DNA of 64,000 nucleotides from Blastocatellia bacterium (GCA_035315885.1 DATFXM010000194.1:172825-236824); one strand, 5' to 3'. Positions 1,296 to 63,545 are shown, counted from the first letter of the stretch. Notes: a model not told the origin generated them from the letters alone. Numbers and translations are program-made.

Positions 1296-1496
1296 TGGAC
1301 TACTGGAAGTTCTGAGTTCTGAGTTCTGAGCAGAAGGCAGTAGGACGGTTTAGGGTTTAGGGTTTCCGGTTCGTTTGATTCAATAGTCTTTCGTCGAGCA
1401 TTGCTCGCCATCCGAGTCTCTATCTGACGAACCCTAAACCCGAAACCCTAAACCCGAAACCTGCCTACTGCCTACTACACAAACTTCCCTGTGGTA
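1296..1496. repeat. Composite palindromic intergenic element in the divergent copA/thiO region.
   Basis: Left arm: ggaagttctgagttctgagttctgag-cagaaggcagtagg-ggtttagggtttagggtttccggttc. Right arm: gaaccctaaacccgaaaccctaaacccgaaacc-tgcctactgcctact-aacttcc. The arms are reverse complements around a ~55-bp centre. Confidence 0.8.
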
Positions 1497-1506
1497 CGAT
1501 TATCTG

Positions 1507-2622
1507 ATGCCGCAACAAGAGATCGTAGTGATTGGTGGTGGGATTATTGGCTGCTCAATCGCTCTGCGGCTCGCTAAACTCGGCGCGAGCGTCACCCTTC
1601 TCGAGAAAGACCGCATCGGACGCGAGGCATCGTGGGCAGCGGCGGGAATGCTCGGCCCGCATTCGGAAGCGTCCGGCCCCGACCCCTTTTTCGATCTGTG
1701 TATTCGCAGCCGGGACCTGTACGCCGGCTTCGCCGCCGAGTTGCGGGAAGACTCCGGCGTCGATGCCGGGTATCGAAATGATGGCGGATTCTTTGTCGCG
1801 CTGGAGCCGCACGAATCGCTCGATGCCGCCCGATGGTCGGGCTGGCAAATTGATTCGGGCCTCGAGCTGCAGCAGGTGTCTTCATCCGATCTGCGATCGC
1901 ACGAACCGGAGATCAGCGATCAAATACATTCTGCGATCTCCATCCCCGGCGATCATCAAGTGGACAATCGCCTGCTGATGACTGCTCTTGAAATCGCGAT
2001 TCTAAGAGCCGGCGTGAAGGTCGTACGCCACTGCGAGGTTGCGTCGCTGGAGCTGAAGAACAACCGCGTTAGCGCGGTGTTGTCACACGACGCACGCTTT
2101 GATTGCGAAGCGGTAGTTCATGCAGCCGGTTGCTGGTCGTCCGTTCTCTTAAAGCAAATCGGTTTAGCGATCGACGTAGTGCCGGCTCACGGCCAGATGT
2201 TGTCGGTGAGGGGTCCGCATTTGAATCACGTCGTGCATTCCAATGACTGTTACCTTGTGCCGCGCGCCGACGGAAGGCTTCTGATAGGCGCCACCGTCGA
2301 GTACCAGGGCTTTAGAAAAACAGTCACTGCTGGAGCGATTCATTCTCTCCTTACTTCTGCGATGCGTCTGGTTCCTTCGATTCAGAACGCCCAATTGGTC
2401 GAGTGGTGGTCGGGGTTGAGGCCCGATACAAGGGATCATCAGCCGCTGCTCGGACCCGCCGGCCCGGACGGTCTGTTCCTGGCAACTGGCCATTTTCGAA
2501 ACGGGATCCTGCTGGCTCCAATTACTGCCGAACTGATTTCCAGTGCGATAATGTCCGGCAAGCCTGCCTCCGATCTCGGACCGTTTCGAGCTGACAGATT
2601 CCTGGTGAAACGCGCCGGATGA
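1507..2622 (+). CDS. thiO: FAD-dependent glycine oxidase / D-amino-acid-oxidase family protein (ThiO-like).
   Basis: N-terminal Rossmann motif IVVIGGGIIGCSIALRLAKLGASVTLLEKD. ASWAAAGML motif. Length of 371 aa is typical of ThiO/DAO-family enzymes. Confidence 0.7.
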   Translation: MPQQEIVVIGGGIIGCSIALRLAKLGASVTLLEKDRIGREASWAAAGMLGPHSEASGPDPFFDLCIRSRDLYAGFAAELREDSGVDAGYRNDGGFFVALEPHESLDAARWSGWQIDSGLELQQVSSSDLRSHEPEISDQIHSAISIPGDHQVDNRLLMTALEIAILRAGVKVVRHCEVASLELKNNRVSAVLSHDARFDCEAVVHAAGCWSSVLLKQIGLAIDVVPAHGQMLSVRGPHLNHVVHSNDCYLVPRADGRLLIGATVEYQGFRKTVTAGAIHSLLTSAMRLVPSIQNAQLVEWWSGLRPDTRDHQPLLGPAGPDGLFLATGHFRNGILLAPITAELISSAIMSGKPASDLGPFRADRFLVKRAG

Positions 2623-2661
2623 TGAAATAATCGCCGCTCCCGTAGTCCTCCTTGAACGAGA

Positions 2662-3741
2662 GTGAACCCAACTGCCGCTTCAACAGTCACCGGGAAGCCG
2701 GTTCGAGCCACGGTGATCGTGGTGAGTTACAACTCACCTGACAAACTGCTGGCCTGCCTCGGATCCGTTACTGGTTCTCTTCCAGCCGATTGTGAACTCC
2801 TGGTCATCGACAACGCATCACCCGAGAACAATGCAGACGCGGTTGCTGCTGCTTTTCCCTCGGTGAGACTGTTGCGTTCGCCGGAAAACCTCGGGTTCGC
2901 CGGCGGAGCAAACGAGGCGGTGAAAGCGTCGCGTGGAGAGTTTATCGTTTTGCTTAACCCCGACACGACGGTGCGGGAAGGTTGGCTTGATCAGTTGATT
3001 GCTCCGCTTGTCGCATCGGACCACATCGGAATGACCACCTCGCGGATTTTGCTCGCCGCCCGACCTCAATTGTTCAACGCATCCGGGTGCGAGATTCATC
3101 TGAGTGGAATATCGCTCTGCAGAGGTCTTGGGAGGAATCACCGCGAGTTCGATCCACCACGCAACGTAGCCGCAGTCTCGGGCGCCGCGTTCGCCATTCG
3201 CAGAGAAGTATTTGACCTGCTGGGTGGGCTCGACTCCGACATGTTCCTGTACCTGGAGGATATCGACCTATCGATGCGAGCCAGACTGGCAGGGTTCGGG
3301 ATCGAATACGCACCCGGGAGCGTGGTGCTGCATGACTACGAGTTGCGAATAACCCCGTTGAAGGTGTTCTGGCAGGAGCGCAATCGTTATCAGATGCTGC
3401 TCAAGAACCTGAGCTGGCCGACGTTGCTTGTGCTGCTCCCCACGCTCTTCCTGGCAGAAGTCATAACCTGGGGATTCGTAGTGCTGAAAGACCGCAAGAA
3501 CATAACCAACAAGCTGAATGCGTATCGCTGGGTTTTCGAGAACTGGGGAAAGATCATGAGCAAGCGGCGCCAGGTGCAGTCGCTCAGGAGGGCTTACGAC
3601 CGCGACATACTGTTGAGCACCAGCTATCGCCTGGAGTTTGAGCAAGCCGCCACCGGGGCACTACCGATTGCAACCGGAGCAATACTGAATCCGATATTCT
3701 TTCTGCTGCGAGCGATCGCGCTTGCACTTGTGTGGTGGTAA
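2662..3741 (+). CDS. Family 2 glycosyltransferase.
   Basis: VIVVSYNSPDKLLACLGSV, LLVIDNASPENN, and a DxD-like motif (LYLEDIDLSMR). The C-terminus carries TM helices, typical of rhamnosyl/GT2 enzymes. Confidence 0.75.
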   Translation: MNPTAASTVTGKPVRATVIVVSYNSPDKLLACLGSVTGSLPADCELLVIDNASPENNADAVAAAFPSVRLLRSPENLGFAGGANEAVKASRGEFIVLLNPDTTVREGWLDQLIAPLVASDHIGMTTSRILLAARPQLFNASGCEIHLSGISLCRGLGRNHREFDPPRNVAAVSGAAFAIRREVFDLLGGLDSDMFLYLEDIDLSMRARLAGFGIEYAPGSVVLHDYELRITPLKVFWQERNRYQMLLKNLSWPTLLVLLPTLFLAEVITWGFVVLKDRKNITNKLNAYRWVFENWGKIMSKRRQVQSLRRAYDRDILLSTSYRLEFEQAATGALPIATGAILNPIFFLLRAIALALVWW

Positions 3742-3795
3742 CGATTTATTGCCGTCCCCGGAGGGCGCCACCAATCGAACTCAGTTTCACACAAG

Positions 3796-3902
3796 GCCGC
3801 AAAGCGTCGCAAGGAACGCAAAGCGCGGAATCCCTGCGGGCTTTGCGGCTTTGCGTGAGACCCAACTCATGTAGCAACGCAACCCCTACAGGGTTGCGTT
3901 AC
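3796..3902 (+). terminator. GC-rich stem-loops downstream of the GT2 gene. This is terminator-like but has no U-tract.
   Basis: A perfect 10-bp stem aacgcaaccc/gggttgcgtt with a 5-nt loop at 3876-3900. A preceding cgcaaagc...gctttgcg hairpin. Confidence 0.3.
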
Positions 3903-7756: not shown

Positions 7757-8562
7757 CTCGCAACCCGACCAACAGGTCGACTCACATCCAAAGTCCAGAC
7801 AAAGCCCACTCGCAGTCCGTTCAGCCGGTTGCCGACGCTCGTCTCGAGCGAAGCGGCTTACCCAGCGTGTCGGTGTGCTTTCCAGCTTACAACGAGGAAG
7901 CGACCATCGAAGATGTTCTGCTGGAAGCCGGAGAGTTGCTGTCGGGCTCAGGACTCGACTTTGAGATACTGGTCTGCGACGACGCCTCGAAAGACAGCAC
8001 TCTCAACATAGCTCGCCGCGTGCAGCAACAATTCCCGATGCGCGTGTTCGTGCACGAACGAAATATGGGCATCCGCGCAACCTTCGAACATCTCTATGCG
8101 AATGCGACCAAGGAATTTGTCTTCTTGAACTCAACGGACCGTCAGTGGGATACGTCCGTGCTGTTTCAGATGCTGCCGATGACCGCACAGTTCGACGTGA
8201 TAATCGCATCGCGCCTGGACAAGAACTATGGACCAGCCCGCGGACTGGTATCGTGGGCATTCAATGCTATTCCACGAGTGCTCTTCGGAACGAGGACCTA
8301 TGACGCAGGTGCGGTCAAGCTGGTCAAACGAGAGATCATTCAAAGGTGCGAAATCGTTTCGAAGTCTCCATTCTCCGAAGCCGAACGTCTAATTCGAGCT
8401 GCGCGCGCCGGCTATCGCATAGCGGAACATCCGGTGGTCACGAGGCCGAGGGAAAGTGGAAAAGCGAAGGGGGTCAATGCGGGCGTGGTGTTTCGAGCAT
8501 TGGTAGACGTCGTGCTTGTATGGTTCTCTCTTCGCAAATGGAAACTTCGAGGAGATAGTTAG
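7744..8562 (+). CDS. GT2 polyprenyl-phosphate sugar synthase-like glycosyltransferase (Dpm1/ArnC-like).
   Basis: VSVCFPAYNEEATIEDVL and ILVCDDASKDST motifs. The enzyme is short and soluble with a C-terminal amphipathic tail. The true start may lie downstream of 7744. Confidence 0.65.
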   Translation: MRVVTRNPTNRSTHIQSPDKAHSQSVQPVADARLERSGLPSVSVCFPAYNEEATIEDVLLEAGELLSGSGLDFEILVCDDASKDSTLNIARRVQQQFPMRVFVHERNMGIRATFEHLYANATKEFVFLNSTDRQWDTSVLFQMLPMTAQFDVIIASRLDKNYGPARGLVSWAFNAIPRVLFGTRTYDAGAVKLVKREIIQRCEIVSKSPFSEAERLIRAARAGYRIAEHPVVTRPRESGKAKGVNAGVVFRALVDVVLVWFSLRKWKLRGDS

Positions 8563-10762: not shown

Positions 10763-10812
10763 CAGAAGTAGGCAGTATGCATACTGCCTACTGCCTACTG
10801 CCTACCACTTTC
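10763..10812. repeat. Palindromic heptamer element (ggcagta/tactgcc) between convergent genes.
   Basis: The sequence gtaggcagtatgcatactgcctactgcctactgcctacc is a perfect palindrome around gcatac. Confidence 0.8.
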
Positions 10813-12299
10813 AGCGCTGATTGTACCGCGGCTTTCAAACCCTCGAGTGTCTTGTCTTTTACTTTCCGGCCATTCACAAACACAGTTGGAGTCGAACTCA
10901 CTCCGGCGGCGGTACCGTCGCGCAGGTCCTTCTTGACTGCCGCAGCGTATTGCCCCGATGCCAGCGCTTTATCAAACGCAGCTCGGTCCAGTCCCAGCCT
11001 CGTTGCATACTCCTTCAGGTTCACGACCTCCAACGCATTCTGGTTTTGAAACAGAAGCGCCGTGTACTCCCAGTACTTGCCCTGCGCTCGCGCTGCCTCC
11101 GCGGCCTCCGCCGCCTTCGCTGCGTAAGCATGCTGATCGAGCGGGAAATCCCGAACTACAAGCTTAACCTTGTCCCCAATCTCGTTCATCAACTGCTCGA
11201 GTACCGGCTGTGTTCGTCCACAACTCGGACATTGAAAATCTGTGAATTCAATTATCACTACCTGTGCGTTCGGATTCCCTTTCCACGGCCGATCGTCGAT
11301 CGAGATGTTGTAGTAGGGCGCTTCGGGTTCAATCAGGTTGTCCTTGAGATTTGCCGTAGTCCGAAGCTTCCCCGCAAAAGCGGTGGCCGCATTCGTCTGC
11401 TCCTGCCCCTCCAGATACTCCACGATCTGCTGCCGAACCTGCACGTAACCGCCTTGAATCCTGTCACGATTCTGCTCGTAAAAAGTCCGCGCATCGGTCT
11501 CTCGCACCGGCTTGATGAGCGGCGCAATCTCAGCTTCGTACAACGAGTCTGCCGACAGATTCCGCTTCTTCGCCTCCTGCTCCAGAAGCAGGCTGTTTAT
11601 CCGCGCGTCGAGCTGCCCCCGCCGTAGCGTGTAGATCTCTTCCTGAGCATCGTAGATCACCGAACGAAGCGCGTCCTCGAGATCTCCCGCAGTTATAGGT
11701 TTGCCCGTCACCGTAGCCAACACCCGCGCGCGCTCCGCATCGTTCTTCGGAGGCGCGGCCGTCGCGACAAGCACCCGCACTTGATAGGACTCTGTGAGAC
11801 CAGCGGCAAATTTGTTTATCAGCTCCTGCCGGCGCTGGTCCCTGAGATAGCTGATGATGCTTGGCTTCCATTCGCTGAATTCACCCTGAATGTTCGCTTT
11901 GTTCTGGTCGTAGTAGGCCCTCGCTTCGGCTTCGGTTGGTTCCTTCAAGGTAGAAACGACCTGTTGCTCAAGCTGGTCAATCGTAACGCCTCGTTTCGCT
12001 GCCTCCGCATCCATTACTCTTTTTCTGAGCTGGTTCTCCAACTCGCGGCTTCTCGCTTCGGCTACTTGTTTGCGCAGTTCGGCGATACGAACCTTGATCT
12101 CGTAGTCCACCATTTCCCGAGTTATCTTTGCACCGTTCACCGTTGCCAGAACGTCAGACGGAATCCCCGGATCGCAACCGCAATCAGGTTGGGGTTGCGG
12201 GTTTGCTTGCGCGGTCTGCACCGCTTCAATTCTCCCACCACCATAAGCGAGCCCACCGGACATCGCCAGCACCAGAACACTCGACAAATACTTCTTCAT
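10788..12299 (-). CDS. Secreted SurA-N-like chaperone domains fused to a DsbA-family thioredoxin domain.
   Basis: Signal peptide MKKYLSSVLVLAMSGGLAYG. Two helical SurA_N-like segments. A C-terminal thioredoxin fold with a CPSC active site (FTDFQCPSCGRT). Confidence 0.7.
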   Translation of the reverse strand: MKKYLSSVLVLAMSGGLAYGGGRIEAVQTAQANPQPQPDCGCDPGIPSDVLATVNGAKITREMVDYEIKVRIAELRKQVAEARSRELENQLRKRVMDAEAAKRGVTIDQLEQQVVSTLKEPTEAEARAYYDQNKANIQGEFSEWKPSIISYLRDQRRQELINKFAAGLTESYQVRVLVATAAPPKNDAERARVLATVTGKPITAGDLEDALRSVIYDAQEEIYTLRRGQLDARINSLLLEQEAKKRNLSADSLYEAEIAPLIKPVRETDARTFYEQNRDRIQGGYVQVRQQIVEYLEGQEQTNAATAFAGKLRTTANLKDNLIEPEAPYYNISIDDRPWKGNPNAQVVIIEFTDFQCPSCGRTQPVLEQLMNEIGDKVKLVVRDFPLDQHAYAAKAAEAAEAARAQGKYWEYTALLFQNQNALEVVNLKEYATRLGLDRAAFDKALASGQYAAAVKKDLRDGTAAGVSSTPTVFVNGRKVKDKTLEGLKAAVQSALKVVGSRQ

Positions 12300-13997: not shown

Positions 13998-14137
13998 GAT
14001 TGGTTTCTGGTTTCTGGTTCCTGGTTTACGGTTCCACCTTGCCGATTGCTCGCAGCCCGGGCTGTTCGTCGCATTGACTCACGTTTCGGACACCAGAACC
14101 GGACCAGAAACCAGGAACGAGAAACCAGGGAACTCAG
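13998..14137. repeat. Palindromic heptamer element (ggtttct/agaaacc).
   Basis: Left arm ggtttctggtttctggttcctggtttacggttcc. Right arm ccagaaccggaccagaaaccaggaacgagaaaccagg. Confidence 0.8.
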
Positions 14138-19615: not shown

Positions 19616-19716
19616 AAGTCAGGACCGAATGCTCGCTGCGGGCGCGTGCTCGAAGTGAACCTCACTTTGGGCGCGCTGGATCGGTAGACCGGAAGCGGCA
19701 ATCAGGCGCCGGCCCC

Positions 19717-19902
19717 TTACTCTTCTTCCTTGATTTCGATAGCGACGCGGCCTCGATAGAAGCCACACTTCGGACAGACTCGATGAGGCGGCCGAGGTTC
19801 GCCGCAATTCGGGCAGTTGCCGACAGCCGGCGCGGTCAGGTGGTCGTGGGCTCTCCTCTTTCCAGTGCGCGACTTGGAATGTTTTCGCTTAGGATTTGGC
19901 AT
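19717..19902 (-). CDS. rpmF: 50S ribosomal protein L32.
   Basis: MPNPKRKHSKSRTGKRRAH with a C-terminal CPNCGE...CPKCGFYRG zinc ribbon. Confidence 0.9.
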   Translation of the reverse strand: MPNPKRKHSKSRTGKRRAHDHLTAPAVGNCPNCGEPRPPHRVCPKCGFYRGRVAIEIKEEE

Positions 19903-19926
19903 TATTTACTCCCTATGAATTCGTCT

Positions 19927-20448: not shown

Positions 20449-20589
20449 TTGAGGGCTCCGCCCGAAAGCCGACCCCGTCTGCCACCGTGACTCGACCCCT
20501 AGGAGGCGATCACACAGAAAGGCGCTTCAACGCAAAAGATAGTCATTATATAAGACACTCCTCTATTGTCAACTTAGCCAGTTATTGAG

Positions 20590-20735
20590 CGAAGGGCGCG
20601 AAGGGGCGAGGGGCCCTGCCGGTGCCAGACCCGGATGAATGCCCTTTGTACACACTGTACACTCGCGCCTCTCTTCCTCCGCGTCCCCGCGTCTCCGGTT
20701 CGCGCATTCGCCCCTTCGCTCTCCCCTCCCCTTAA
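20590..20735. repeat. Oligopurine/oligopyrimidine imperfect palindrome in the divergent promoter region.
   Basis: gagcgaagggcgcgaaggggcgagggg ... cgccccttcgctctcccctcccc. Confidence 0.6.
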
Positions 20736-40944: not shown

Positions 40945-41027
40945 AAGTCATAGCGAAGGCAGGGCTGAGGCGATCAGGTGAGGGGTTGCCGAGGCCAGGC
41001 CGTTAAGCCCTGAAAGGAGAGACAACC

Positions 41028-41090: not shown

Positions 41091-41181
41091 GAGGTAAGAA
41101 ATCGACCTTTTGTTCAGCCACCGACAGAGGTGCGAAATTAGTTAATAGTCACCTCGTCGTCAGCCAAAGGAGAAACAAAGA

Positions 41182-41265: not shown

Positions 41266-41879
41266 GACCTCTGAAGCATCAGCACGAGTTCGTAGGCACC
41301 GCAGGCGTGGTGAGGGACCCGCCTGCGGCGGCCTCGTTCTCTGCAATGGCCGCACGAATTGAAAGAAAGACGAGCGCTGGGCTCGACTGTCCTGCATTTG
41401 TCGAGCTCAGCCCCCTAATCAAAGAATCGGCCTCGCGAGACACTCCCGACGGCGCCCAAGACAAAATCGCCCCGGTCGCCGAATTCGAACACCGGGCCAC
41501 AACTCGAATCTAGCGCGAATCGGCACCGAGTCAGACGTGTGCTCGAAATCACGTCCGGTGGTTCGCCTTAACAACAGCGAACACCCGTGCCGTCGTGGCG
41601 CATCGATGCGGCTCGGCAAAAATATTCACCGACTATTCAGTACGTACTGATGCGATATAAGTCGCACTCGGCGCTGGGCTGTTTGAGTGCCCGAGGTTTG
41701 AATCTGCGCCCTTCTTTCACGTTGTCATCGGGCGTCGCCACGAAAAGTTTGCGAGTCGGCCGCTCGCAACACCACGATGAAGTCGGGGCACAATGATTGC
41801 GAAAGATGCGCCGTGAGCTTTCAGCCGGTGCGGCTCGAGCAACTCTCCTGCCGAGGGCACCGCACCGCTAAGGCTCACG

Positions 41880-42545: not shown

Positions 42546-42580
42546 AACAAGTCTTGATCTATGCTATCCACAGTTAAAGG

Positions 42581-46320: not shown

Positions 46321-46443
46321 TTCAGAACGCAAGATTTTCTGGTTAGAGGATTCGAGTTAGAGGATTCGAGTGGACCGCATCAGCCAATATGAAGTGCGCG
46401 AGTTATACAGTGCGCCGGATAGAAAGCGGACTCACGACCAACA

Positions 46444-49272
46444 ATGTCACAAGATGAGCAACACAGAAAACTAACTCAGCTCGCGAAGGACGCTGAGGAT
46501 CGCGGAGGGCAACTGCAGAACTACCCGCCTCCTGATAAATGGGACGACTGGGTTGAGTTGGATGCGCGCGCATGGCCGCGACGAGTCGAGCGTCACTATC
46601 AACTGATCCCGACTGTGTGCTTCAACTGCGAGTCGGCTTGCGGCCTGCTGGCCTACGTGGACAAACAGACCGGAGAGATCCGCAAGTTCGAAGGCAACCC
46701 TCTCCACCCCGGGTCGCGCGGGCGCAATTGCGCCAAGGGGCCGGCGACAATCAACCAGATCGATGATCCCGAACGAATCCTGTATCCGCTGAAGCGGAAA
46801 GGTAAGCGTGGCGAAGGCGAATGGGAGCGCACAACCTGGGACGAGGTTCTGGACACTTTCTCCGCACGAATACGGAAGGCGCTGATCGATGGGCGTCGCG
46901 ACGAAGTCGTCTACCACGTCGGACGCCCGGGTCACGACGGGTACATCGATCGAGTTCTTCAGGCGTGGGGAGTTGACGGTCACAACTCTCACACGAATAT
47001 CTGCTCTTCGTCCGCGCGTCTCGGTTACGCGCTTTGGCAAGGAGCGGACCGGCCCTCGCCCGATTATTCAAACGCCAGGTTTATTCTTCTGCTCAGCTCG
47101 CACCTGGAAACGGGGCACTACTTCAATCCGCATGCTCAACGAATAATCGAAGGCAAAATGAGCGGCGCCAAAATCGCGGTGATCGATCCGCGTCTTTCGA
47201 ACACCGCCTCCTCAGCGAACTATTGGTTGTCACCGTATCCCGGCACCGAAGCTGCGTTGCTGCTTTCGATGGCCTCAGTCATCCTGAATGAGAATCTCTT
47301 CGACCGCCAGTTCGTGCGACGCTGGGTGAACTGGGAAGAATTCATGCGCTTTGAGCGGCCGCACCTCCCGTCTTCATTTGAATCTTTCATTGACGAGCTC
47401 AGGCAAGTGTATTCAAGCTTCACGCCGGAGTTTGCTGCTGAGGAATGCGGCGTGGAAGCATCCACGATTGTCGAGGTAGCGCACGAGATCGCTCGAGCGG
47501 GTTCCGCGTTTGCCTCGCACGTATGGCGCAGCGCGGCAAGCGGAAACCTCGGAGGTTGGCAGGTTGCACGCGCGTTGATGTTCCTTAACGTCCTGACTGG
47601 AAGCGTCGGAACTCGCGGGGGTGTTTGTCCTAACACGTGGAACAAATTCGTGGCGACTCCGTTTTCAAAGCCGGAGCCACAAAAAGTATGGAGTGAGCTC
47701 CTGTGGCCCCGCGAGTATCCCCTCTCGCATCACGAGCTGAGTTTCCTGCTTCCCCATTTATTGAAAGACGGGCGAGGCCATCTGTCGGCGTACTTCACTC
47801 GCGTTTACAACCCGGTTTGGACCAATCCTGATGGATTGAGTTGGATTGAGGTGTTGCGCGATGAGTCACTGATTGAGCTTCATGCAGCGCTGACGCCGGT
47901 ATGGAGCGAGACCGCGTGGTTTGCCGACTATGTCTTGCCGATGGGCCTGGGCGCTGAGCGGCATGACTTGATGAGCCAGGAGACGCACTCTGCTCAATGG
48001 ATTTCGTTTAGACAGCCGGTCAAACGAGTGGTCGCCGAGAGATCCGGCGCCCACGTGGACTACACGTATCAGGCCAACCCCGGCGAGGTTTGGGAAGAGG
48101 ACGAGTTCTGGATCGAGTTGTCGTGGAGGATCGATCCCGACGGAAGTCTCGGCGTACGCCGACATTTCGAGTCCCCGTACCGGCCCGGCGAAAAGGTGTC
48201 GATCGAAGAGTACTATCGGTGGATCTTCGAAAACAGCATACCCGGCCTGAAAGAACAGGCAGCGAGCATGGGCCAGGAGCCGCTCGACTACATGCGACGG
48301 ATCGGCTCGTTCTCGGTAAGGAAGAATGTCTACGATCTGCACGAGGCTGCGGTCTCCGAGGCACAGCTCGAAAACGCACGGATCGACGATCAAACCGGAA
48401 GGATAATCAAGCCCGGGGTGGGTGCGATGAGCGCCGTCGGCTTGATGATCGACGGAGAGCCGCGCGTCGGGTTCAACACGCCCTCGCGGAAGCTCGAGTT
48501 GTACTCCAGGACGATGGCAGAATGGAAGTGGCCTGAGCACAGCCTGCCGGGTTACATGCGCAGTCACATACACTGGAGAGACCTGGAGCGCGGCTCGGGG
48601 GAATACATTCTGGTGCCTACTTTTCGGCTACCTACGCTGATTCACACTCGCTCGGGCAACGCGAAGTGGTTGTATGAAATCTCGCATACGAATCCGTTAT
48701 GGGTTAACCCCGGTGACGCGAAGGTGCTCGGCTTCGAGAATGGGGCGCTGGTCAGAGTGAACACGGAGATCGGATACTTCGTGATTCGGGCCTGGGTGAC
48801 TGAAGGAATCAGGCCTGGCGTAGTTGCGTGTTCGCACCATCTCGGCAGGTGGCGTCTTAAGCGTGAGGAAGGCGCGGACCGCTGGGCCTCTGCCCTGGTA
48901 GATCTGGAAGAACTCGGTGAAGGCCGGTGGAAGCTGAGACGCGTTGAAGGGATCGCGCCGTTCGAAAGCGCGGACCCCGATTCGGAAAGAATCTTCTGGC
49001 GCGAAGCAGGCGTACATCAGAATCTGGCTTTCCCGGTGCATCCGGACCCGGTGAGCGGAATGCACTGCTGGCATCAGCGAGTGCGACTGGAAAGCGCGAA
49101 AGACGGCGATCAGTACGGGGACGTCGTGGTGGACACGAAGCTGTCTCGAGATGTCTATCGCAAGTGGTTGGAGATGACGCGGCCCGCTCCCGGACCCGAG
49201 GGTCTGAGGCGACCGCGATGGTTCTCACGTCCGGTCAGGCCCGCCGATGAGGTGTACGTCATGACGGTTTAG
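46444..49272 (+). CDS. Molybdopterin (bis-MGD) oxidoreductase catalytic subunit of the Psr/Phs/Ttr/Arr-like clade. No twin-arginine signal.
   Basis: N-terminal 4Fe-4S motif CFNCESACGLL...NCAKG. Its length and the PGVVACSHHLGRW region are typical of Mo-bisPGD enzymes. The N-terminus MSQDEQHRKLTQLAKD lacks an RR motif. Confidence 0.75.
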   Translation: MSQDEQHRKLTQLAKDAEDRGGQLQNYPPPDKWDDWVELDARAWPRRVERHYQLIPTVCFNCESACGLLAYVDKQTGEIRKFEGNPLHPGSRGRNCAKGPATINQIDDPERILYPLKRKGKRGEGEWERTTWDEVLDTFSARIRKALIDGRRDEVVYHVGRPGHDGYIDRVLQAWGVDGHNSHTNICSSSARLGYALWQGADRPSPDYSNARFILLLSSHLETGHYFNPHAQRIIEGKMSGAKIAVIDPRLSNTASSANYWLSPYPGTEAALLLSMASVILNENLFDRQFVRRWVNWEEFMRFERPHLPSSFESFIDELRQVYSSFTPEFAAEECGVEASTIVEVAHEIARAGSAFASHVWRSAASGNLGGWQVARALMFLNVLTGSVGTRGGVCPNTWNKFVATPFSKPEPQKVWSELLWPREYPLSHHELSFLLPHLLKDGRGHLSAYFTRVYNPVWTNPDGLSWIEVLRDESLIELHAALTPVWSETAWFADYVLPMGLGAERHDLMSQETHSAQWISFRQPVKRVVAERSGAHVDYTYQANPGEVWEEDEFWIELSWRIDPDGSLGVRRHFESPYRPGEKVSIEEYYRWIFENSIPGLKEQAASMGQEPLDYMRRIGSFSVRKNVYDLHEAAVSEAQLENARIDDQTGRIIKPGVGAMSAVGLMIDGEPRVGFNTPSRKLELYSRTMAEWKWPEHSLPGYMRSHIHWRDLERGSGEYILVPTFRLPTLIHTRSGNAKWLYEISHTNPLWVNPGDAKVLGFENGALVRVNTEIGYFVIRAWVTEGIRPGVVACSHHLGRWRLKREEGADRWASALVDLEELGEGRWKLRRVEGIAPFESADPDSERIFWREAGVHQNLAFPVHPDPVSGMHCWHQRVRLESAKDGDQYGDVVVDTKLSRDVYRKWLEMTRPAPGPEGLRRPRWFSRPVRPADEVYVMTV

Positions 49273-49455
49273 AGTCTTGGGTTTAGGGTTTAGAGTTTTG
49301 GGTTTAGTGTTTCGGGATTAGTGTTTCGGGGTCCGGAGATTTTGACGAGGAAGAGTTCTGTTATCGGCTGCTGCCTTCAGTCGCCAAAGACAACCAGAGA
49401 CCCGAAACCAGAAACTAGAAACCCCGAAACCCTAAACCCGAAACCTAATTTAGGT
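49273..49455. repeat. Palindromic heptamer element (ggtttag/ggtttcg versus cgaaacc/ctaaacc).
   Basis: gggtttagggtttagagttttgggtttagtgtttcgggattagtgtttcgggg ... gacccgaaaccagaaactagaaaccccgaaaccctaaacccgaaacc. Confidence 0.8.
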
Positions 49456-49496
49456 TTTACGATTCACGATTCTCAAGGTAGGCTTAGAGGGTAAAG

Positions 49497-52033: not shown

Positions 52034-52079
52034 TTGAATCTTTGACCTGCTGACTATATCAACAACCGGGTGGAATCGT

Positions 52080-52275
52080 AAATCGTGAATAGTGAATAGT
52101 AAATGGTTTCTTGGCCCGGCTTCTGGGTTTCTGGTTCCTGGTTCCTGGTTCGAGGAATTGCGACTCTGCGATGGTCGGGAGTCGTTTGCCTAAGTCCTGC
52201 TTGCTCGGATGACAAGCATGCCCGCTAAGGAACAGCTGTTTCAACCAGAAACCCGAAACCAGAAACCCTAAACCC
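52080..52275. repeat. Palindromic heptamer element (ggtttct/ggttcct versus agaaacc/ctaaacc) in a divergent promoter region.
   Basis: ggtttcttggcccggcttctgggtttctggttcctggttcctggttcgagg ... caaccagaaacccgaaaccagaaaccctaaaccctgaaccctaaacc. Confidence 0.8.
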
Positions 52276-52360
52276 TGAACCCTAAACCGTTCCGAATAAC
52301 CCTTACCCCTTGCCTGACGTTGCGACCACCAATAGAATCTCCTTTGAGCATGGAGATGTC

Positions 52361-54518: not shown

Positions 54519-54944
54519 ATGAGTGATTTGCTATTCAGGAAGCCGAGTGTGGGTAAGGAAATTTTGTCTCATTGCGGCCGCTGCAAGGACGAGCGGACGC
54601 ACATTGTGACCGCGATGGACGGCGATGTTGTTCGTCGGGTCACCTGCTCGACGTGCGGCAGCACGCACAATTACCGGCCGCCGGCGACGAAGCGGCCGGT
54701 AAGAAGCGGAGCCGGCCGTACCCGCAGCGAAGGGGGAACTCAAAAGCAGGCCTTTCGGATTGATCCGAGCCGCCCGGTGAGAGACTACGACATGCACGCA
54801 AACTTCAGTGAAGGAGAGGTGATCAGTCACCCGAAGTTCGGACTGGGTGAAGTTCAGACCTCTCTTGCGCCTAACAAGATCGAAGTACGCTTCACTGAAG
54901 GCACACGGTTACTGCTGCACAACATGAAAAGTGCTGAGTACTGA
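54519..54944 (+). CDS. Zinc-ribbon protein with a C-terminal beta-rich domain.
   Basis: CGRCKDERTH...CSTCGSTHNY four-Cys ribbon. C-terminal KFGLGEV...IEVRFTEG. Confidence 0.5.
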   Translation: MSDLLFRKPSVGKEILSHCGRCKDERTHIVTAMDGDVVRRVTCSTCGSTHNYRPPATKRPVRSGAGRTRSEGGTQKQAFRIDPSRPVRDYDMHANFSEGEVISHPKFGLGEVQTSLAPNKIEVRFTEGTRLLLHNMKSAEY

Positions 54945-55098
54945 GTGCCGAGTGCCGAGTTGTGAATGATCAGCTCGGGCCGCGGAGACGCCGCGGCCTG
55001 CGCAGCGACAGTTGAGGCGCTCAGAGTTTCACTGAGGCACAGTTGAACTGGCCACGCGAGAACTTGCAAGAGCTGTGGTGCGCTTCTAGAACCGGCCT

Positions 55099-55614: not shown

Positions 55615-55724
55615 CTAGCACTCCTTTCGTGATTTCTCGAAGCAAGGCATTAACAACTATAGAATGATTCCTCAGCCAGCCGATACAAATTTGCTCAATT
55701 TTTTTTAAAGAGTCAATCCCAAAC

Positions 55725-55995
55725 TTTTAGTAAGCGAACTGGCGAAGGGACGAATCGGCGACGCGGAGACGAGAGACGAAGTGACGCGGAGAGGAGGGAC
55801 GGGGTGAGGAGGGATGCGGTGACGCGGTGAGGAGAGACGCCGTGACGTGACGCGTCCGTTGGTCGCCCCTTCGCACTTTCGCCCATTGCCCCTTCTCTCC
55901 CCGTCCGTCCCTCCTCTCCGCGTCTCCGCGTCTCTCCTCTCCGAGTCGCCCTTCTCCCCTTCTCCCTTCGCCCATTCGCTCCCCGTCCGTAGTCG
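55725..55995. repeat. Oligopurine/oligopyrimidine imperfect palindrome.
   Basis: gacgcggagacgagagacgaagtgacgcggagaggagggacggggtgaggaggg ... ccttctctccccgtccgtccctcctctccgcgtctccgcgtctctcctctcc. Confidence 0.8.
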
Positions 55996-55998
55996 CGT

Positions 55999-56652
55999 TC
56001 AGTCATGCTTGGGCTCGAAGGTGACATGAGGAATCATCGTGGCCTTTTCCTTCATCGTTACACGACCGGCCAGCTTCTTCTGCACGCGCTCGGCCGGCAC
56101 AAATGCTACCTTGCTGTCTACAAGCTGCTGGTTGGGCCGATAACCGAGCCCAAACTCAGGCAGCTCCGGCCGATTCGTCAGGCGCTTCAGGTCCCAGATC
56201 GTTTCGTTCCTGCTGTACGCGCAAATCTCTGTCTCGCGGCTCATGATGATCGCCTCTTCCGGACAGGCGTCTACACAGAACCCACAAAAGACACAGCGCA
56301 ACATGTCGATTTCAAATCGAGCTGGGTACTTCTCGATCTGCGGATCAGGATGCTCTGCAGGCTCGATGTAGATACAATCGGCAGGGCACGCAGTAGCACA
56401 CATATAACAGGCCACGCACCGCGGCGTCCCATCTTCCCTCGTTGTCAGAATGTGAGCGCCCCGATAGCGATCTGAGTAAGCGCGGCGCTCCTCCGGATAC
56501 CGGATCGTGGCGTCAACTTTGCCCGTCAGATTGTCGATCATCCGCGTCATCGTGAGCCCCATTCCCGAGAGCGGAGCAAGTACTTCCTTCGCGATCGACG
56601 ACTCTGCAGCCGTCCGGTCCGCAACGTTTATGACCTTCGGAGTCTTCTTCAT
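55999..56652 (-). CDS. nuoI: NADH-quinone oxidoreductase subunit I.
   Basis: Two 4Fe-4S motifs, CVACYMCATACP and CVFCGFCVDACP. Confidence 0.85.
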   Translation of the reverse strand: MKKTPKVINVADRTAAESSIAKEVLAPLSGMGLTMTRMIDNLTGKVDATIRYPEERRAYSDRYRGAHILTTREDGTPRCVACYMCATACPADCIYIEPAEHPDPQIEKYPARFEIDMLRCVFCGFCVDACPEEAIIMSRETEICAYSRNETIWDLKRLTNRPELPEFGLGYRPNQQLVDSKVAFVPAERVQKKLAGRVTMKEKATMIPHVTFEPKHD

Positions 56653-58269: not shown

Positions 58270-58400
58270 CTTTAGTTCTGAGTGCTGAGTGCTGAGTTGT
58301 TGGTACTGAGTTCCTGATTCTCAATACTGAGTTTTGGTCATGTGATCCTCGGATTTGAGGAGCTTTATCTCAAGAAACAACTCAGCATTCAGCACTTCAA
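58270..58400. repeat. Partial palindromic heptamer element (ctgagtg/cactcag type) inside the nuo operon, between nuoG and nuoF.
   Basis: agttctgagtgctgagtgctgagttgttggtactgagtt ... aactcagcattcagcacttc. Confidence 0.7.
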
Positions 58401-59644: not shown

Positions 59645-60107
59645 GCTTCTCGATTGTTTCTCGCACGCGCTCGGGGCTTAGGTTTTCAAAATAGCGATCC
59701 CCAACCTGCATCACCGGAGCGGTGTCGCACGACGCAAGACATTCGGTGAAATCCCAACTGAACTTCCCATCAGGTGTTATCTGACTGCGATCAACCCCGA
59801 GCTTCTCCTTGATCACGTCGGCGCATGGATACGTACCCATGAGCCAGCAACTCACGTTGCGGCAAAGCTCCAGGTGGTACTTACCAACCGGCTTCTTTCG
59901 AAGAAGCGTGTAAAAAGTTGCGACGCTCAAGACATCAGCGGGAGGATAGCCCATCAGACCGCCGACGTATTCGGCGACCTCCTGCGAAATCCACCCAAAC
60001 TCGCGCTGAGCAAGAGCGAGCACCGGTACTAGAGCTGCCCGCTTCTCAGGATAGTGAGAGAGAATCCTCTCGTAGCTGCGTTGCGCCTCTTCGCTAAACT
60101 GAATCAT
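59631..60107 (-). CDS. nuoE: NADH-quinone oxidoreductase subunit E.
   Basis: [10 protein letters not shown]...CLASCDTAP 2Fe-2S thioredoxin-like motif. Confidence 0.85.
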
Positions 60108-62419
60108 CGATCGAGCTCTCCAGCGATGATGTTGTAACTACCTAGTGCGGCAATGGCATCGGCAACCAGTGATCCCTCAATCATCTTCGGATACGCCGAG
60201 AAGAGCGAGAAGCACGGGCCGCGTGCGTGCACACGCCAGGGCTGCATCGATCCATCGCTGATGATGTAGTAGCCCAACTCGCCGTTTGCACCCTCGGTGT
60301 ATCCATACACTTCACCCGGAGGAGGTTGTATTCCATGCATCGTGAGCTTGAAATGGTTCATCAAGTCTTCGATGTTGGTATACACGCCTTTTTTTGGCGG
60401 CAGGGTGATACGCCGGTCATCGACCTGAAATGGGCCCTCCGGCAGATTCTCGAGCGCCTGCTCTACTATTCGCACGCTCTGCCGCATCTCTTCCATCCTT
60501 ACCAGGTAACGGTCGTAGACGTCTCCCCGGTTTCCAATAGGCACTTCAAAATCGAAGTCATCGTAGCTCGAGTAAGGATGCACCTGACGGATGTCGTAGG
60601 GCACACCCGTCGCTCGCAACATTGGACCCGTAAACCCCCAGTCGATTGCGTCGGTCTTGTTTATCTCCGTAACTCCGACTGCACGTTGTTTGAACAGACG
60701 GCTGTGCGTGTTCAAACGGTCCAGATCGTCAATGTACTTCGGCAGCCGCTTTAAAACCTCCCGACAGCGCGGGACAAAGTCGGCAGGCAGCTCCGAGGCA
60801 AGTCCGCCAACTCGCACGTAGCTGACCATCATCCGCACGCCGGCTGTCATCTCCAGCAGATCGTAGATCTCTTCTCTCGGCTCGAACGAGTACCAGAAGT
60901 TGGTTATCGCGCCCAGGTCCACCAGATTTGCGCCAATGCACACCATGTGGTCCATGATGCGGGACAGCTCGCCCAGCAATACCCGGATGTATTGCACTCG
61001 TTTTGGTACTTCGATCCCAAGAAGCTTCTCGACGGCACACGCATACCCGACGTTGTTCAAGAACGACGAACAGTAGTTCAAACGATCGGTGTACGGTATT
61101 ACCTGATTCCACTGGTGGGTCTCGGCCATCTTTTCAAAACAGCGATGCAGGTAACCTATCTCCACATCGGCATCGACTATTTTTTCGCCGTCCAGACGAC
61201 AGACGATTCGCAGAGTTCCGTGAGTAGCCGGATGCGATGGGCCCACATTGACGATCGTCGGCTCAGGGCTCAGCCGGTCCTGCTCGTGACCCTCCCACTG
61301 AGTCCGGTACTCGATCGGCAGCTTGTAATCACGAGATAGCGGCGTTCGCGCTCCCGCTTCGTGATCCTTCCTGAGTGCGTATCCAACGAATTCCTCGTGG
61401 CAAAGAATGCGGCGAAGGTCGGGGTGATTCCGGAATCGAACGCCGAACATGTCATATGTTTCGCGTTCCCACCAATTCGCCGTCTTCCAGATTGAGCTGA
61501 CCGAATCTATCTCGGGCGCCGACTCCGCCAGGGGCACCTTCAGCCTCAGCCGGTGCCCGTGATCTATCGAGTACATTTGGTAGACGACGTTGAATCGCTC
61601 CTCGCGGGTCGTATTCGGATAGCCCAGATAGTCTGCACCGGTGATCGAGCTCAGCAGATCGAATTTCGTTGACGAATCAGCTTTAAGAGTACGGCAGATC
61701 TCCACGACCTGGTCGGGTCTGACGGTGACCGCAAGATCCCCACGAAAGTCGTTCACGTCCAGAACCTGATCCTTGAATCTATCCTGAATCAAGGCCGCGA
61801 TGGGATTCTGCGGCGCCGCGGGCTCTCGGGTTATATGAACCAGTCTGACTGCCTCGTGGGCCTGCTGTTCGGCGATCAGCAGCGTTTTGGGAGAACTTTC
61901 GGTGATTTCTTTTTTCATCCGCTCGCGCAGCTCGGCGCGGGCATCGGCATCAACGAAGCGCTCTTTTTGAATGATCTCTCTGATCATCAGGACCGCTTGA
62001 AGTACGGCTTCGGGCGAAGGAGGACAGCCGGGAATGTAGACGTCTACCGGGATCAACTCGTCGATGCCCTGCATCACGTGATAGGCGCGGTAGAAGCCGC
62101 CCGAGGTTGCGCACGCGCCCATCGAGATCACCCACTTCGGATCAGGCATCTGATCGTAGATCTTCTTGAGCACCGGACCCATTTTGTCGGTGATGGTGCC
62201 CATGACCATGAGCAAATCGGACTGGCGAGGGCTGAAGCGGACGACTTCGGCGCCGAAACGTGCGAGGTCGTAGTGGGCAGAGACCACGGACATGAACTCA
62301 ATTGCGCAGCAAGCGGTGCCGAAGGGCATGGGCCACAGCGAGTTCTTCCGCCCCCAGTTTGCCATTTCGCTTACTTTGGTTGTCAGGAAACTCTCGCCAA
62401 CTGTGGAGGCAGAACTCAT
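60104..62419 (-). CDS. nuoBCD: Fused NADH-quinone oxidoreductase subunits B-C-D in one 771-aa polypeptide.
   Basis: NuoB part: [11 protein letters not shown]...GACATSGG...IPGCPP. NuoC part: [26 protein letters not shown]. NuoD part: [18 protein letters not shown]...C-terminal [13 protein letters not shown]. The frame is continuous. Confidence 0.85.
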
Positions 62420-62499
62420 GTTGTCCCTCGATTGTTTTTGCGTAGTCCGCTCAGAAGTTGATCCTATTTGTCCGCGGTTCGAATTAAATCTTATCTCTG

Positions 62500-62830
62500 G
62501 GTATGGAGCCCGTCAAACATGGCGGTATTTTTTGGGGTGAGGAGATAAGGCGAATTGGCGAAGGGGCGGTGGCGTGATGCGGAGACGGGGAGAGGAGGGA
62601 CGGGGGAAGGAGGGAATGGGCGAAGGGGCGACCCGCACGGTTCAGCTGACACGGTTGCCCATTCTCTCTTCGCCCATTCGCGCCTTCGCCCATTCGCCCA
62701 TTCCCTCCTCTCCGCTCCCTCCTCCCCGCGTCCCCGCGTCGCCCCTTCGCTTCTCTTCCGCTCCGCTTGTGTCCTTCTCTACGCTACTGCATACTCGCTT
62801 CAGCATCTTCAATACGGCCCCTGGAGAAAA
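62500..62830. repeat. Oligopurine/oligopyrimidine imperfect palindrome.
   Basis: ggcgaaggggcggtggcgtgatgcggagacggggagaggagggacgggggaaggaggg ... cccattccctcctctccgctccctcctccccgcgtccccgcgtcgccccttcgc. Confidence 0.8.
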
Positions 62831-62834
62831 TGAC

Positions 62835-63323
62835 ATGCGGATATTCGGAAAGAATCTCTCAGACTACATTGCAGTGCAGAAGGGAATGCTTCTTCTGATC
62901 GCGCTTGTCGCGCTCGGGCGGCTAGCGCTCTCTCTGGCAGGAGTGTCAAATTCCGCTGCGAAGTGGCTCAGCGTCACCGCAGTGATGGCTCTCGGAGCAG
63001 TCTACGCCGGGATCAAAGTCAACAGCAGCGGCTTTGGCGGCTTCAGACACTTGCTCCCGATGGTGTTCTTCCAGGATGTCCTTGCCCAGCTTGTCGTTGC
63101 CGGCGGCATCGCCCTGGCAATCGTTACTCAAAAGGACAACATCTTCAGCGCGCCTGAGTACTCAGGAAACCGCGACGGCAAGACCTGGTCACATTCGGTC
63201 GCTCACCTTGTGCTCGGATTTATCGTAGCGCCGCTTGTGTCCTGGGGAATCTCTTCGTTGGTTCTGTTGCTTGCGCGCAAGACTTCGCCCGGCAAGCGCG
63301 ACGCCGAAGCCGCAAGCGCGTAG
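62835..63323 (+). CDS. Small integral membrane protein (4 TM), hypothetical.
   Basis: Start set at ATG 62835 (MRIFGKNLSDYIAVQKGMLLLIALVALG). The track's upstream extension is repeat-derived. Confidence 0.5.
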   Translation: MRIFGKNLSDYIAVQKGMLLLIALVALGRLALSLAGVSNSAAKWLSVTAVMALGAVYAGIKVNSSGFGGFRHLLPMVFFQDVLAQLVVAGGIALAIVTQKDNIFSAPEYSGNRDGKTWSHSVAHLVLGFIVAPLVSWGISSLVLLLARKTSPGKRDAEAASA

Positions 63324-63324
63324 A

Positions 63325-63545
63325 GTACGCGGAGGAAGGGGAGATGAAGAGATGAGGAGATGAAGAGATGAGGAGATGAGGAGATGAGGAGATGAGGGGA
63401 TGATGCGAAGGGGCGAAGGGGCGAGAAAAGTCAACGGTCTTCCGGATAGTATGTCTCCGCGTCACCGTGTCTCTCCTCCCCGCGTCCGTATCTCCCCTTC
63501 GCCCTTTCGCATATCTCGCTTCCCTGCCTCGTAGTACTTCCGGCC
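63325..63545. repeat. (gaggagat)n array plus pyrimidine-rich partner. It overlaps the 3' end of rarA.
   Basis: gagatgaagagatgaggagatgaagagatgaggagatgaggagatgaggagatgagggg ... gtctctcctccccgcgtccgtatctccccttcgccc. Confidence 0.7.

Follow-up and report, generated by a model that had tools for sequence, protein, structure and literature searches.

To our knowledge, it has been clear for more than 30 years that certain bacteria have an excess of heptamer repeats, without any cause or function having gained acceptance. Heptamer excess in prokaryotes was reportedly described by Mazel and co-workers in 1990, for the short tandemly repeated repetitive (STRR) sequences of cyanobacteria, and by Mrazek, Guo and Shah in 2007; such repeats are said to be intergenic, to consist of genome-specific words with a preferred period of 7, and to have been treated as direct repeats for which polymerase slippage was proposed. 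Here we describe arrays that face each other in pairs within a 64,000-nt stretch of DNA from the soil-type genome of a Blastocatellia bacterium (Acidobacteriota), hereafter called the window, on which all coordinates are counted. The elements concerned consist of long simple-sequence repeats arranged as inverted pairs; their unit is 7 nt, in some cases 8 nt, and the elements lie in most of the intergenic gaps.

Paired arrays are known from Xanthomonas, where each genome has 70-75 inverted pairs of GGGAATC heptamer arrays in convergent orientation (Rehm et al. 2015, PLoS One, PMC4692102). These arrays are located nearer to their 5' neighbour gene (28 versus 160 nt), vary between species and have no known function (PMC4692102), and GGGAATC repeats form G-quadruplexes (G4) in vitro (Rehm 2015, PMC4692102). 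Furthermore, in Beggiatoaceae, cyanobacteria and Bacteroidetes, direct repeats of TAACTGA lie directly upstream of start codons (MacGregor 2015, PMC4679880). In the literature that we searched, heptanucleotide repeats were not reported for Acidobacteria.

The window, in which mutL and thiO are found as well as fab, etf and nuo genes, represents ordinary chromosomal DNA. On a gene map that combines domain hits, open reading frames (ORFs) and a self-trained codon score, 11% of it is non-coding. A search of the window for tRNA and transfer-messenger RNA found none. Tandem arrays were detected with Tandem Repeats Finder (TRF) and their arms with an inverted-repeat search, and we confirm that facing tandem arrays of 7-8-mers with hairpin potential in most gaps are a real observation. 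On the curated gene map an element is present in 15 of the 19 intergenic gaps longer than 120 bp, a count that leaves out the 311-bp gap at 19616-19926, which holds rpmF. Repeat words are enriched 10- to 130-fold in non-coding DNA, and a strict detector found zero arrays in 20 block-shuffles of the window. At a period of 7 or 8, the copy number of the TRF arrays rises to 10 where the copies are perfect and to 34 where they are degenerate, and matching inverted arms are found for example at 1327-1371/1437-1481, 31703-31727/31924-31948, 41887-41956/42303-42333 and 55757-55802/55905-55950. When the folding of the 18 elements (numbered E1 to E18) is scored against dinucleotide shuffles, 13 of them reach z <= -3, with the strongest folds (z of -12 to -13) at 31682-31950 and 41884-42535. 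An assembly artefact was rejected, as the architecture recurs in numerous assemblies that are independent of each other, and genes beside the arrays end at stop codons within them.

The initial annotation of this DNA had claimed that almost every intergenic space over ~120 bp carries an imperfect inverted repeat, with a left arm of tandem 7-8-mers and a right arm that is its reverse complement. The gap count bears this out, and the TRF and inverted-repeat searches agree on the build of the arms. At all 17 loci that it listed, TRF indeed found arrays with a period of 7 or 8; however, the one at 34022 is a one-armed GGCAGTA array beside a bidirectional terminator, the one at 54936 has a GC hairpin and is largely one-armed, and those at 30119, 52080 and 63325 pair weakly (z of -1.2, -2.5 and -0.6). 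One small element at 3790-3862 comes on top of that list. The gene labels given at the time (copA-like/thiO, GGDEF/ribA, yceD/ECF sigma and nuoF-nuoG) were right, as was the view of hairpin-forming, microsatellite-like arrays that are neither simple terminators nor a classical repetitive extragenic palindrome (REP), considering that there is no Rfam match, that hairpins with a T-run occur at shuffle level, and that elements are present in divergent gaps.

A heptamer differing from locus to locus had also been supposed; instead, about five word families recur in the window. One is AGTTCTG/AGTGCTG (AGTKCTG), another comprises the GGTTTAG-like words (GGTTTAG, GGTTTCG, GGTTTCT, GGTTCCT), further families are GGCAGTA and GTGAATA/GAATCGT, and there is a vocabulary of G-rich 8-mers (GGCGAAGG, GCGGAGAC, GGAGAGGA, GGAGATGA). 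The idea of a separate word for every site is contradicted by this small recurring vocabulary, by the common termini and central hairpin of AGTKCTG elements, and by the finding of AGTGCTG in at least 120 contigs of a metagenome scan for three such units. The families are matched from arm to arm in 15 of 15 two-armed elements, where the estimated chance rate is about 0.26 per element (assuming independent draws from about five families), and they can be nested in mirrored layers. This is best seen in E1 (1305-1488, DNA fold z -8.3), a three-layer palindrome between the divergent copA-like and thiO genes, which reads AGTTCTG, GGCAGTA, GGTTTAG, core, CTAAACC, TACTGCC, AACTTCC: its left arm consists of (AGTTCTG)3, GGCAGTA and (GGTTTAG/GGTTTCC)4, its right arm of (CTAAACC/CGAAACC)5, (TGCCTAC)2 and AACTTCC, and its 57-nt core is unique. 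Variant units are not mirrored between arms, and arm sizes can diverge, as in E10 with 10 perfect units on the left versus ~34 degenerate ones on the right. For AGTGCTG-type palindromes, with median arms of 28 and 28 nt and a loop of 40 nt, the lengths of the two arms do not correlate (Spearman -0.004, n=57, among the matches listed). Continuous hairpin-templated symmetrisation of the arms was rejected on account of these uncorrelated lengths and unmirrored variants. Among the GGTTTAG-type and purine-rich elements the central cores show no mutual relationship, their pairwise alignments not exceeding shuffle level, and no target-site duplication or conserved termini were found across 50 AGTGCTG-type elements of other genomes (among the matches listed).

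Palindromic heptamer arrays of this build are also common in other genomes. A NuoF-based scan with one genome per species yielded 80 loci, among which such arrays occur in seven from Acidobacteriota (L017, L018, L027, L037, L038, L048, L083) and three from Bacteroidota (L060, L063, L074), each with words of its own, and in none from Bdellovibrio or the remaining loci. Period 7 is dominant in a census of 84 loci not picked for repeats, accounting for 30 of 45 arrays, with 3, 7, 3 and 2 arrays for periods 5, 6, 8 and 9, respectively. The nearest locus by NuoF (L001, 82% identical) has no array in 21 kb, and the best full-length NuoG is 74% identical. A check of orthologous intergenic regions had been proposed together with the claim that the elements are regenerated de novo at each site, and at the nuoF-nuoG gap it shows other words or none in relatives: AGTKCTG in the window, CGCAAAGT in L083, CACAAAG in L084, and no array in the 41-bp gap of L081. 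These differing words, the unrelated cores, the uncorrelated arms and the absence of target-site duplications are all in line with local growth, although the claim as worded was too strong. The gap of L081 (9960-10000) does contain a single CAGTTCTGA, possibly a seed for the AGTTCTG word and possibly a product of chance. Arrays of GTGAATC/GAATCGT are present in both Acidobacteriota and Bacteroidota (L074, a member of the Lewinellaceae, at 7818-7962; L038 at 17149; the window at 52074-52104), and a limited vocabulary of words seems to be common across phyla.

The arms obey a rule of polarity. G and T prevail in the left arm, C and A in the right arm, in 16 of 17 two-armed elements of the window, which reads alike on both strands because the structure is palindromic. 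For a wider count 204 other loci were taken along besides the window (205 sequences in all), with a unit-agnostic array detector covering words beyond AGTGCTG: the 5' arm has more G than C in 65 of 67 palindromic arrays among the matches listed, and with every distinct word counted once this amounts to 8:0 in unbiased loci and 17:1 in metagenome loci (likewise among the matches listed). For AGTGCTG arrays the reverse-complement partner lies downstream in 31 cases and upstream in 1, and about half of the arrays in the AGTGCTG metagenome loci are unpaired, both figures again applying to the matches listed. If unpaired arrays are read along their G-rich strand, the gene on the 5' side is the nearer one (median 21 nt, versus 75 nt on the 3' side; 35:13, p = 0.002), whichever strand that gene is on, and paired arrays are nearer on the 5' side too (median 7.5 versus 62.5 nt). 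In the window itself, seven flanking stop codons are situated within a repeat unit or arm (E7 on both sides, E9, E11, E13, and the right side of E2 and E17), and E3 and E15 reach from stop codon to start codon. Transcription-driven strand skew was rejected as the cause of the polarity, which is equal in convergent and divergent gaps. GC-balanced 8-mers with the same palindromic build occur in relatives (CTTTGCGT/ACGCAAAG and CACAAAGG; L083 8095-8214 and 9929-10000, L084 9914-10000); the G>C rule has no defined meaning for these words, as for those at 3790-3862 in the window, and they occur with either T/A polarity.

The same orientation, with the G-rich strand running 5' to 3' toward the centre on both strands, is that of head-to-head telomere arrays. 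A dedicated enzyme could in theory add G-rich repeats, one after another, to the 3' ends present at nicks, at breaks or at the tips of hairpins, in which case the palindrome would represent two facing tracts, as in a telomere-telomere fusion. GGTTTAG equals the plant telomere unit TTTAGGG, and mirrored layers would follow if one word were active at a time. We nevertheless consider this extremely unlikely: the arms of most elements are separated by 20-90 nt of unique core, end-joining predicts back-to-back arrays, the arrays are anchored at gene ends and not at the centre of the gap, no gene for a reverse transcriptase or primase-polymerase is nearby, and the codon content of the words explains the polarity more simply.

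In the mRNA sense, it is the G-rich strand that follows a gene's stop codon and the G-poor strand that precedes a start codon. Since C is absent from stop codons and G is required in start codons, a codon test was run on 90 distinct words, each of them compared with letter-permuted words and read in tandem context. On the G-rich strand a stop codon is present in 51 of the 90 words versus 37.9 expected (P < 0.001, among the matches listed), and on the C-rich strand ATG, GTG or TTG is present in only 2 of the 90 versus 9.2 expected (P = 0.002, among the matches listed). Both the enrichment of stops and the depletion of starts persist without the AGTGCTG family and after clustering of similar words. 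With a period of 7 or 8, one stop per unit leads to stops in all three frames. A more far-reaching explanation would be a trans-phylum punctuation of genomes, in which genome-specific G-rich heptamer tracts are actively deposited from gene ends in a directional manner, thereby providing three-frame stops, start-free leaders and insulating hairpins. This would span Acidobacteriota, Bacteroidota, Xanthomonas, cyanobacteria and Beggiatoaceae, and a trans-acting factor that fixes the word might also explain the mirrored layers, but we regard it as decidedly doubtful.

For the origin of the elements we lean, with restrained confidence, towards independent 7-nt slippage amplification of both arms of pre-existing hairpins, with the orientation filtered by translation signals. 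At the start, each gap would have held a hairpin or a short inverted repeat, some of these being copies of a REP-like hairpin family. Replication slippage would then duplicate 7-nt segments in each arm of the stem. Mismatch repair is less efficient for loops above 3 nt (Mrazek & Huang 2014), and slipped loops of this size would evade MutS-based repair, allowing arrays to grow and shrink freely, arm by arm; MutL is encoded in the window. In-place amplification of successive stem segments would result in mirrored layers, and expansion would proceed until the flanking genes are met. Tolerated would be only the orientation in which the G-rich, stop-rich strand reads away from a stop codon and the G-poor, start-poor strand reads into the next start. 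As such, the words of the two arrays would be complementary because the arms began as complements, and the polarity of a G-rich 5' arm and a C-rich 3' arm would arise because only one orientation is tolerated beside genes. We infer this course of events from the slippage step onward, and it is the simplest that covers the word matches between arms, the mirrored order of layers, arm lengths that are independent, the unique cores and the lack of duplications. The 10 perfect units at 41887-41956 point to recent slippage.

Several points must however be held against slippage. No closely related pair was found by megablast among the 205 sequences, and slippage polymorphism is thus not directly seen. 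The codon statistics are modest and the words not fully independent, and the unbiased subset, which is small, is by itself not significant (P = 0.155 for stops and 0.057 for starts). Slippage alone accounts neither for the dominance of a few words per genome, nor for the recurrence of AGTGCTG in at least 120 unrelated metagenome contigs, and the preference for exactly 7 nt is left without explanation. Every RNA-level effect of the elements is something that we infer, and E4 appears to lie upstream of a promoter, from which it may not be transcribed. Finally, there are signs of what looks like unit copying: the termini GGAAGTTCTGAG...CTCAGAACTTCC are exactly common to E1, E5, E7 and E9, and a hairpin designated hpA, CAACCCCGAAGGGGTTG, is central in E5, E7, E9 and E10.

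Of these, E5 (23834-23901, z -5.7) is the minimal AGTKCTG element, consisting of GGA(AGTTCTG)2AGTGC, the hpA hairpin CAACCCCGAATGGGTT, a (CTCAGAA)-type arm and CTTCC; its start coincides with the stop codon of an HtrA-like gene. In E7, E9 and E10, a tandem unit of 76-77 nt comprises hpA, a second hairpin hpB (CCCAGGGTTGCCGnnnnCGGCTACCCTGGG) and a locus-specific spacer of 20-22 nt. E7 (31682-31950, z -12.9) has an arm of AGTTCTG + (AGTGCTG/AGCGCTG)6 and an arm of (ACTCAGC)3, enclosing 2.2 copies of the 77-nt unit (31751-31921), and is flanked by convergent genes that both have their TGA stop within repeat units. E9 (40440-40730, z -3.9) contains 2.8 copies of a 76-nt unit (40469-40675) between a (TGAGTGC)4 arm, of which the first unit is the source of the stop codon of a sigma-54 activator gene, and an (ACTCAGA)3ACTTCC arm. 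In E10 (41884-42535, z -12.7), 10 perfect TGAGTGC units (41887-41956) are followed by 3.3 copies of the 77-nt unit in opposite orientation (42002-42252) and by a right arm of ~230 nt with degenerate TCAGCAC/TCAGAAC (42303-42530). The 55-nt module of two hairpins (CAACCCCGAAGGGGTTGCGTCG..CCCAGGGTTGCCGTCCGCGGCTACCCTGGG) that is thus repeated in tandem at 31751-31921, 40469-40675 and 42002-42252 is also found in L084 (7895-8170) and is near-invariant between that locus and the window, despite NuoG being only ~73% identical. It was not found in the other ~200 loci and has no Rfam match; in fact, no part of the window matches Rfam at gathering score, and at E <= 1 the region 40400-42600 gives one match at chance level. 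The hpA-hpB module looks like a lineage-specific family of the REP type. A CRISPR-like reading of the 76-77-nt units was rejected, as the spacers are identical within one locus. The ~1.1 kb between the two large elements E9 and E10 (40733-41880) have no ORF with a coding signal, no Pfam match for the longest ORF and no Rfam match, and may be a decayed gene or an RNA of a new type.

Could the elements then be mobile? Non-autonomous hairpins resembling MITEs (miniature inverted-repeat transposable elements) or hairpin-forming REP doublets (REPINs), served by a transposase elsewhere, with slippage-prone arms and nested by insertion into an older loop, would account for the common termini and the central hpA, for E5 being a compact 68-nt hairpin of REPIN size, for a few words dominating each genome, and for the near-invariance of hpA-hpB between the window and L084. 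The nesting of AGTTCTG outside AGTGCTG, seen 12 times versus 5 for the reverse among the matches listed, points the same way. Set against this are the lack of target-site duplications and conserved termini in the AGTGCTG-type elements elsewhere, the differing cores of all GGTTTAG-type and purine-rich elements, the uncorrelated arm lengths together with the unpaired half of the arrays (among the matches listed), and the fact that arrays abut genes rather than being placed at random within gaps. Moreover, no transposase, integrase or reverse transcriptase is among the genes scanned in the 64-kb window, which also lacks a gene for the REP-associated tyrosine (Y1) transposase RAYT, and no transposase was found in the nuo loci of relatives (L081, L083, L084). 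A MITE was rejected in view of the missing target-site duplications and unrelated cores, with the AGTKCTG subset carrying hpA as the exception. For that subset a mobile origin is plausible; it fails for the other elements, and for the set as a whole it is possible but rather unlikely.

As regards function, a transcript that crosses a gap would probably carry a long stem-loop, reaching from the upstream stop codon to a point shortly ahead of the downstream start. Possible effects of this structure are a barrier to 3' exonucleases, slowing or arrest of RNA polymerase, or translational coupling between the genes on either side; tolerance alone may account for much of the array DNA. An element is present between all four pairs of convergent genes that have any space between them, which would fit ordinary transcription terminators or mRNA-stabilising hairpins without any special origin. 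Hairpin-plus-T-run terminators do not exceed shuffles in the window (22 versus 21.0, 26 versus 21.8 and 14 versus 19.4), so that other 3'-end signals are needed, and the long stems could therefore be 3'-end or stability signals; a T-run also follows some AGTGCTG elements elsewhere (e.g. L095 and L176, among the matches listed). However, four elements are located between divergent genes and one inside the nuo operon, stems of 30-90 pairs made of tandem units far exceed what termination needs, and most elements lack a T-run. Terminator-like sites and elements fall at different places, except next to E8, where the element accompanies a normal terminator instead of replacing it. An explanation by ordinary terminators or stabilising hairpins is therefore very improbable.

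A selected binding track for a protein that recognises single-stranded nucleic acid in a sequence-specific way, for instance ribosomal protein S1, a CsrA-like protein or a cold-shock-domain protein, each domain of which contacts 6-7 nt, or alternatively a non-B DNA structure such as a G4 or i-motif, would place the elements under genome-wide post-transcriptional or topological control. The 7-nt period corresponds to the cold-shock protein footprint proposed for TAACTGA repeats (MacGregor 2015), the C/A-rich arm ends directly before the start codon in E3 and E15, and the words are genome-specific. As for G4, five of the seven canonical motifs in the window are in elements, and the GGGAATC repeats mentioned above form G4 in vitro (Rehm 2015). 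Nonetheless, only E1, E14 and E16 (3/18) qualify for a canonical motif, the AGTKCTG, GGCAGTA and GTGAATA words having no GGG, and G4 was rejected as a general property for this reason. For binding, the many unrelated words in one genome contrast with the single specificity expected, turnover between relatives is fast (down to no array at all in L001), and no candidate protein was identified. We regard control through binding tracks or non-B DNA as quite unlikely.

The remaining elements fall into the word families already described. GGCAGTA forms E2 (10763-10819), a GGCAGTA/(TACTGCC)3 palindrome between convergent genes with the stop codon (10788-10790) of a minus-strand DsbA-like gene inside its right arm, and the one-armed (GGCAGTA)5 of E8 (34037-34075, plus strand, z -0.2), at the 3' side of which lies an ordinary bidirectional hairpin terminator (34110-34130). 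GGTTTAG-like words make up E3 (13998-14137), where (GGTTTCT/GGTTCCT)4 faces (CCAGAAA/CCAGGAA) across the entire gap between etfA and the ETF-QO gene, from stop to start codon. In the gap between mutL and a DUF4440 gene, E6 (30119-30277) has a GTTTCTG/GTTTCCG-type arm that pairs weakly (z -1.2) with (CTCGAAA/CCCGAAA)4. The first unit of E11 (49266-49470, z -3.1) is the TAG stop of a molybdopterin oxidoreductase gene; its (GGTTTAG/GTTTCGG)9 arm is followed by a unique core, a (CCAGAAA/CCCGAAA/CCCTAAA) arm and (ACGATTC)2. Upstream of the molybdopterin oxidoreductase gene, at 46342-46371, the 14-mer GTTAGAGGATTCGA forms a perfect direct repeat of 2.1 copies without an inverted partner, which could be an operator-like site. 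E12 (52074-52291, z -2.5), between the divergent GGDEF and ribA genes, shows a (GAATCGT/GAATAGT) layer, a (GGTTTCT/GGTTCCT) arm, a unique 91-nt core and an (AACCAGA/AACCCGA/AACCCTA)6 arm. Two further AGTKCTG elements are E13 (54930-55060, z -2.7), where the (AGTGCTG/AGTACTG/AGTGCCG)4 arm holds the upstream gene's stop codon and is followed by the GC hairpin GGGCCGCGGAGACGCCGCGGCC and a weak right arm, and E15 (58270-58396, z -6.7), which occupies the nuoF-nuoG gap within the nuo operon with AGTTCTG(AGTGCTG)2 versus a CTCAGCA/TTCAGCAC arm.

The G-rich and purine-rich 8-mers build four elements. E4 (20585-20735, z -3.0), between yceD and an ECF sigma gene and upstream of a perfect -35/-10 consensus on the minus strand (20572-20545), combines a G-rich arm of 8-9-mers (GCGAAGGG...) with a C-rich one (GCGTCCCC, CCCCTTCGC). 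The purine-rich arm of E14 (55725-55985, z -10.9; GCGGAGAC, GAGGGAC, GGTGAGGA ...) faces its complement, with 46-nt arms matching at 89%. The region 55615-55998 contains only this palindrome at a position where relatives have a fumarase gene (L081 12250-13668, L083 12300-13712, L084 12363-13781), which overlaps the end of a gene for a 217-aa iron-sulphur protein downstream of nuoG. E16 (62530-62765, z -7.4) lies upstream of nuoBCD and has a G4-capable arm of G-rich 8-mers (GGCGAAGG, GGAGAGGA, GGGACGG) opposite a C-rich arm (GCCCATTC, CCTCCTCTCC, GCGTCCCC); nuoB, nuoC and nuoD are one fused gene of 771 aa (60104-62419, minus strand), a fusion also present in Blastocatellia relatives. In E17 (63325-63520, z -0.6), the (GGAGATGA)8(GCGAAGGG)2 arm and the C-rich arm (GTCTCCGC, GTCTCTCC, CCCCTTCGCC) have a common vocabulary and pair poorly. 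The right arm enters the 3' end of rarA and holds its stop codon, and the last ~14 residues of RarA/MgsA (63465-63510, minus strand), beyond the Pfam domain, are a C-terminal tail encoded by this arm. Lastly, E18 (3790-3862, z -4.9) is a small palindrome of GCAAAGC/GGCTTTGC 8-mers that is GC-balanced with a reversed T/A polarity, and on its 3' side there is a lone hpA-like hairpin, GCAACCCCTACAGGGTTGC (3879-3900).

For genome analysis such arrays have practical consequences: short-read assemblies are broken by them, annotated stop codons shifted, and spurious ORFs of 90-120 aa called over arrays. In the window, ORFs of 87-123 aa without a coding signal run through elements at 31661-31939, 40464-40757, 41868-42239, 42294-42557 and 55713-56027, and false gene calls of this kind would yield repetitive peptides such as ...STQHSALSTQHSAL.... 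Moreover, the many word families in nested hairpins at almost every gap offer a compact natural test case. If the regularities of polarity and codon content hold genome-wide, translation signals shape which repeats spread, and the G-rich strand leading from the nearest gene, together with the codon bias, would explain why pairing in Xanthomonas is always convergent.

How, then, do these elements relate to known systems? The REP, bacterial interspersed mosaic element (BIME) and REPIN families are likewise intergenic, genome-specific, hairpin-forming and dense, and the hpA-hpB module (55 nt) and E5 (68 nt) are similar to them in size and shape. However, the arms of REPs are not tandem short repeats, and their copies are near-identical with a conserved GTAG-type head, whereas for most of the present elements the core is unique and the arms vary, with no RAYT seen in 64 kb. 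Measured against a REP palindrome (20-40 nt, conserved head, near-identical copies), only hpA-hpB behaves as a conserved unit. With MITEs they have in common that they are small, non-coding and intergenic, with inverted ends and nesting, but they differ in having no target-site duplication, no conserved interior and uncorrelated arm lengths. TAACTGA repeats resemble the arrays in lying upstream of starts, in presenting the G-poor strand in the mRNA sense, in their all-frame stops and in a word common to distant phyla, and the reverse complement of TAACTGA rotates to AGTTATC, resembling the AGTNNNN words of the window. In contrast, they represent a single word, are almost always unpaired (169 direct sets versus one inverted repeat) and have no hairpin described (PMC4679880).

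The pairs of Xanthomonas come closer, being mostly intergenic heptamers in convergent orientation with a G-rich 5' arm and with length and sequence varying among relatives (Rehm 2015). The 5'-side gene is the nearer one in both, at 28 versus 160 nt there and 21 versus 75 nt here. Unlike the window, Xanthomonas has one G4-forming family of words with a preference for four units; the GGGNATC-type word with at least four G-tracts is not found in the window, where at least five unrelated families, mostly not G4-capable, occur in a member of the Acidobacteriota. Mirrored nested layers, purine-rich 8-mers, an internal REP-like module and stop codons supplied by arrays further set the window apart from Xanthomonas. 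The elements do have the properties of long simple-sequence repeats with units of 5-11 nt, namely tandem copies beyond chance, heptamers as the commonest unit and a mainly intergenic location. They are therefore not a new kind of element, but belong to the class of heptanucleotide simple-sequence repeats, of which the paired form is known from Xanthomonas. For the direct repeats of Mazel and of Mrazek and colleagues, systematic pairing into palindromes, the polarity rule and the link with stops and starts are not known to have been described. What is new is the presence of many words in mirrored layers, the purine-rich 8-mer arrays, the REP-like module in one family and the arrays supplying stop codons, as well as a rule of polarity that extends across words and phyla and its explanation by codon content.

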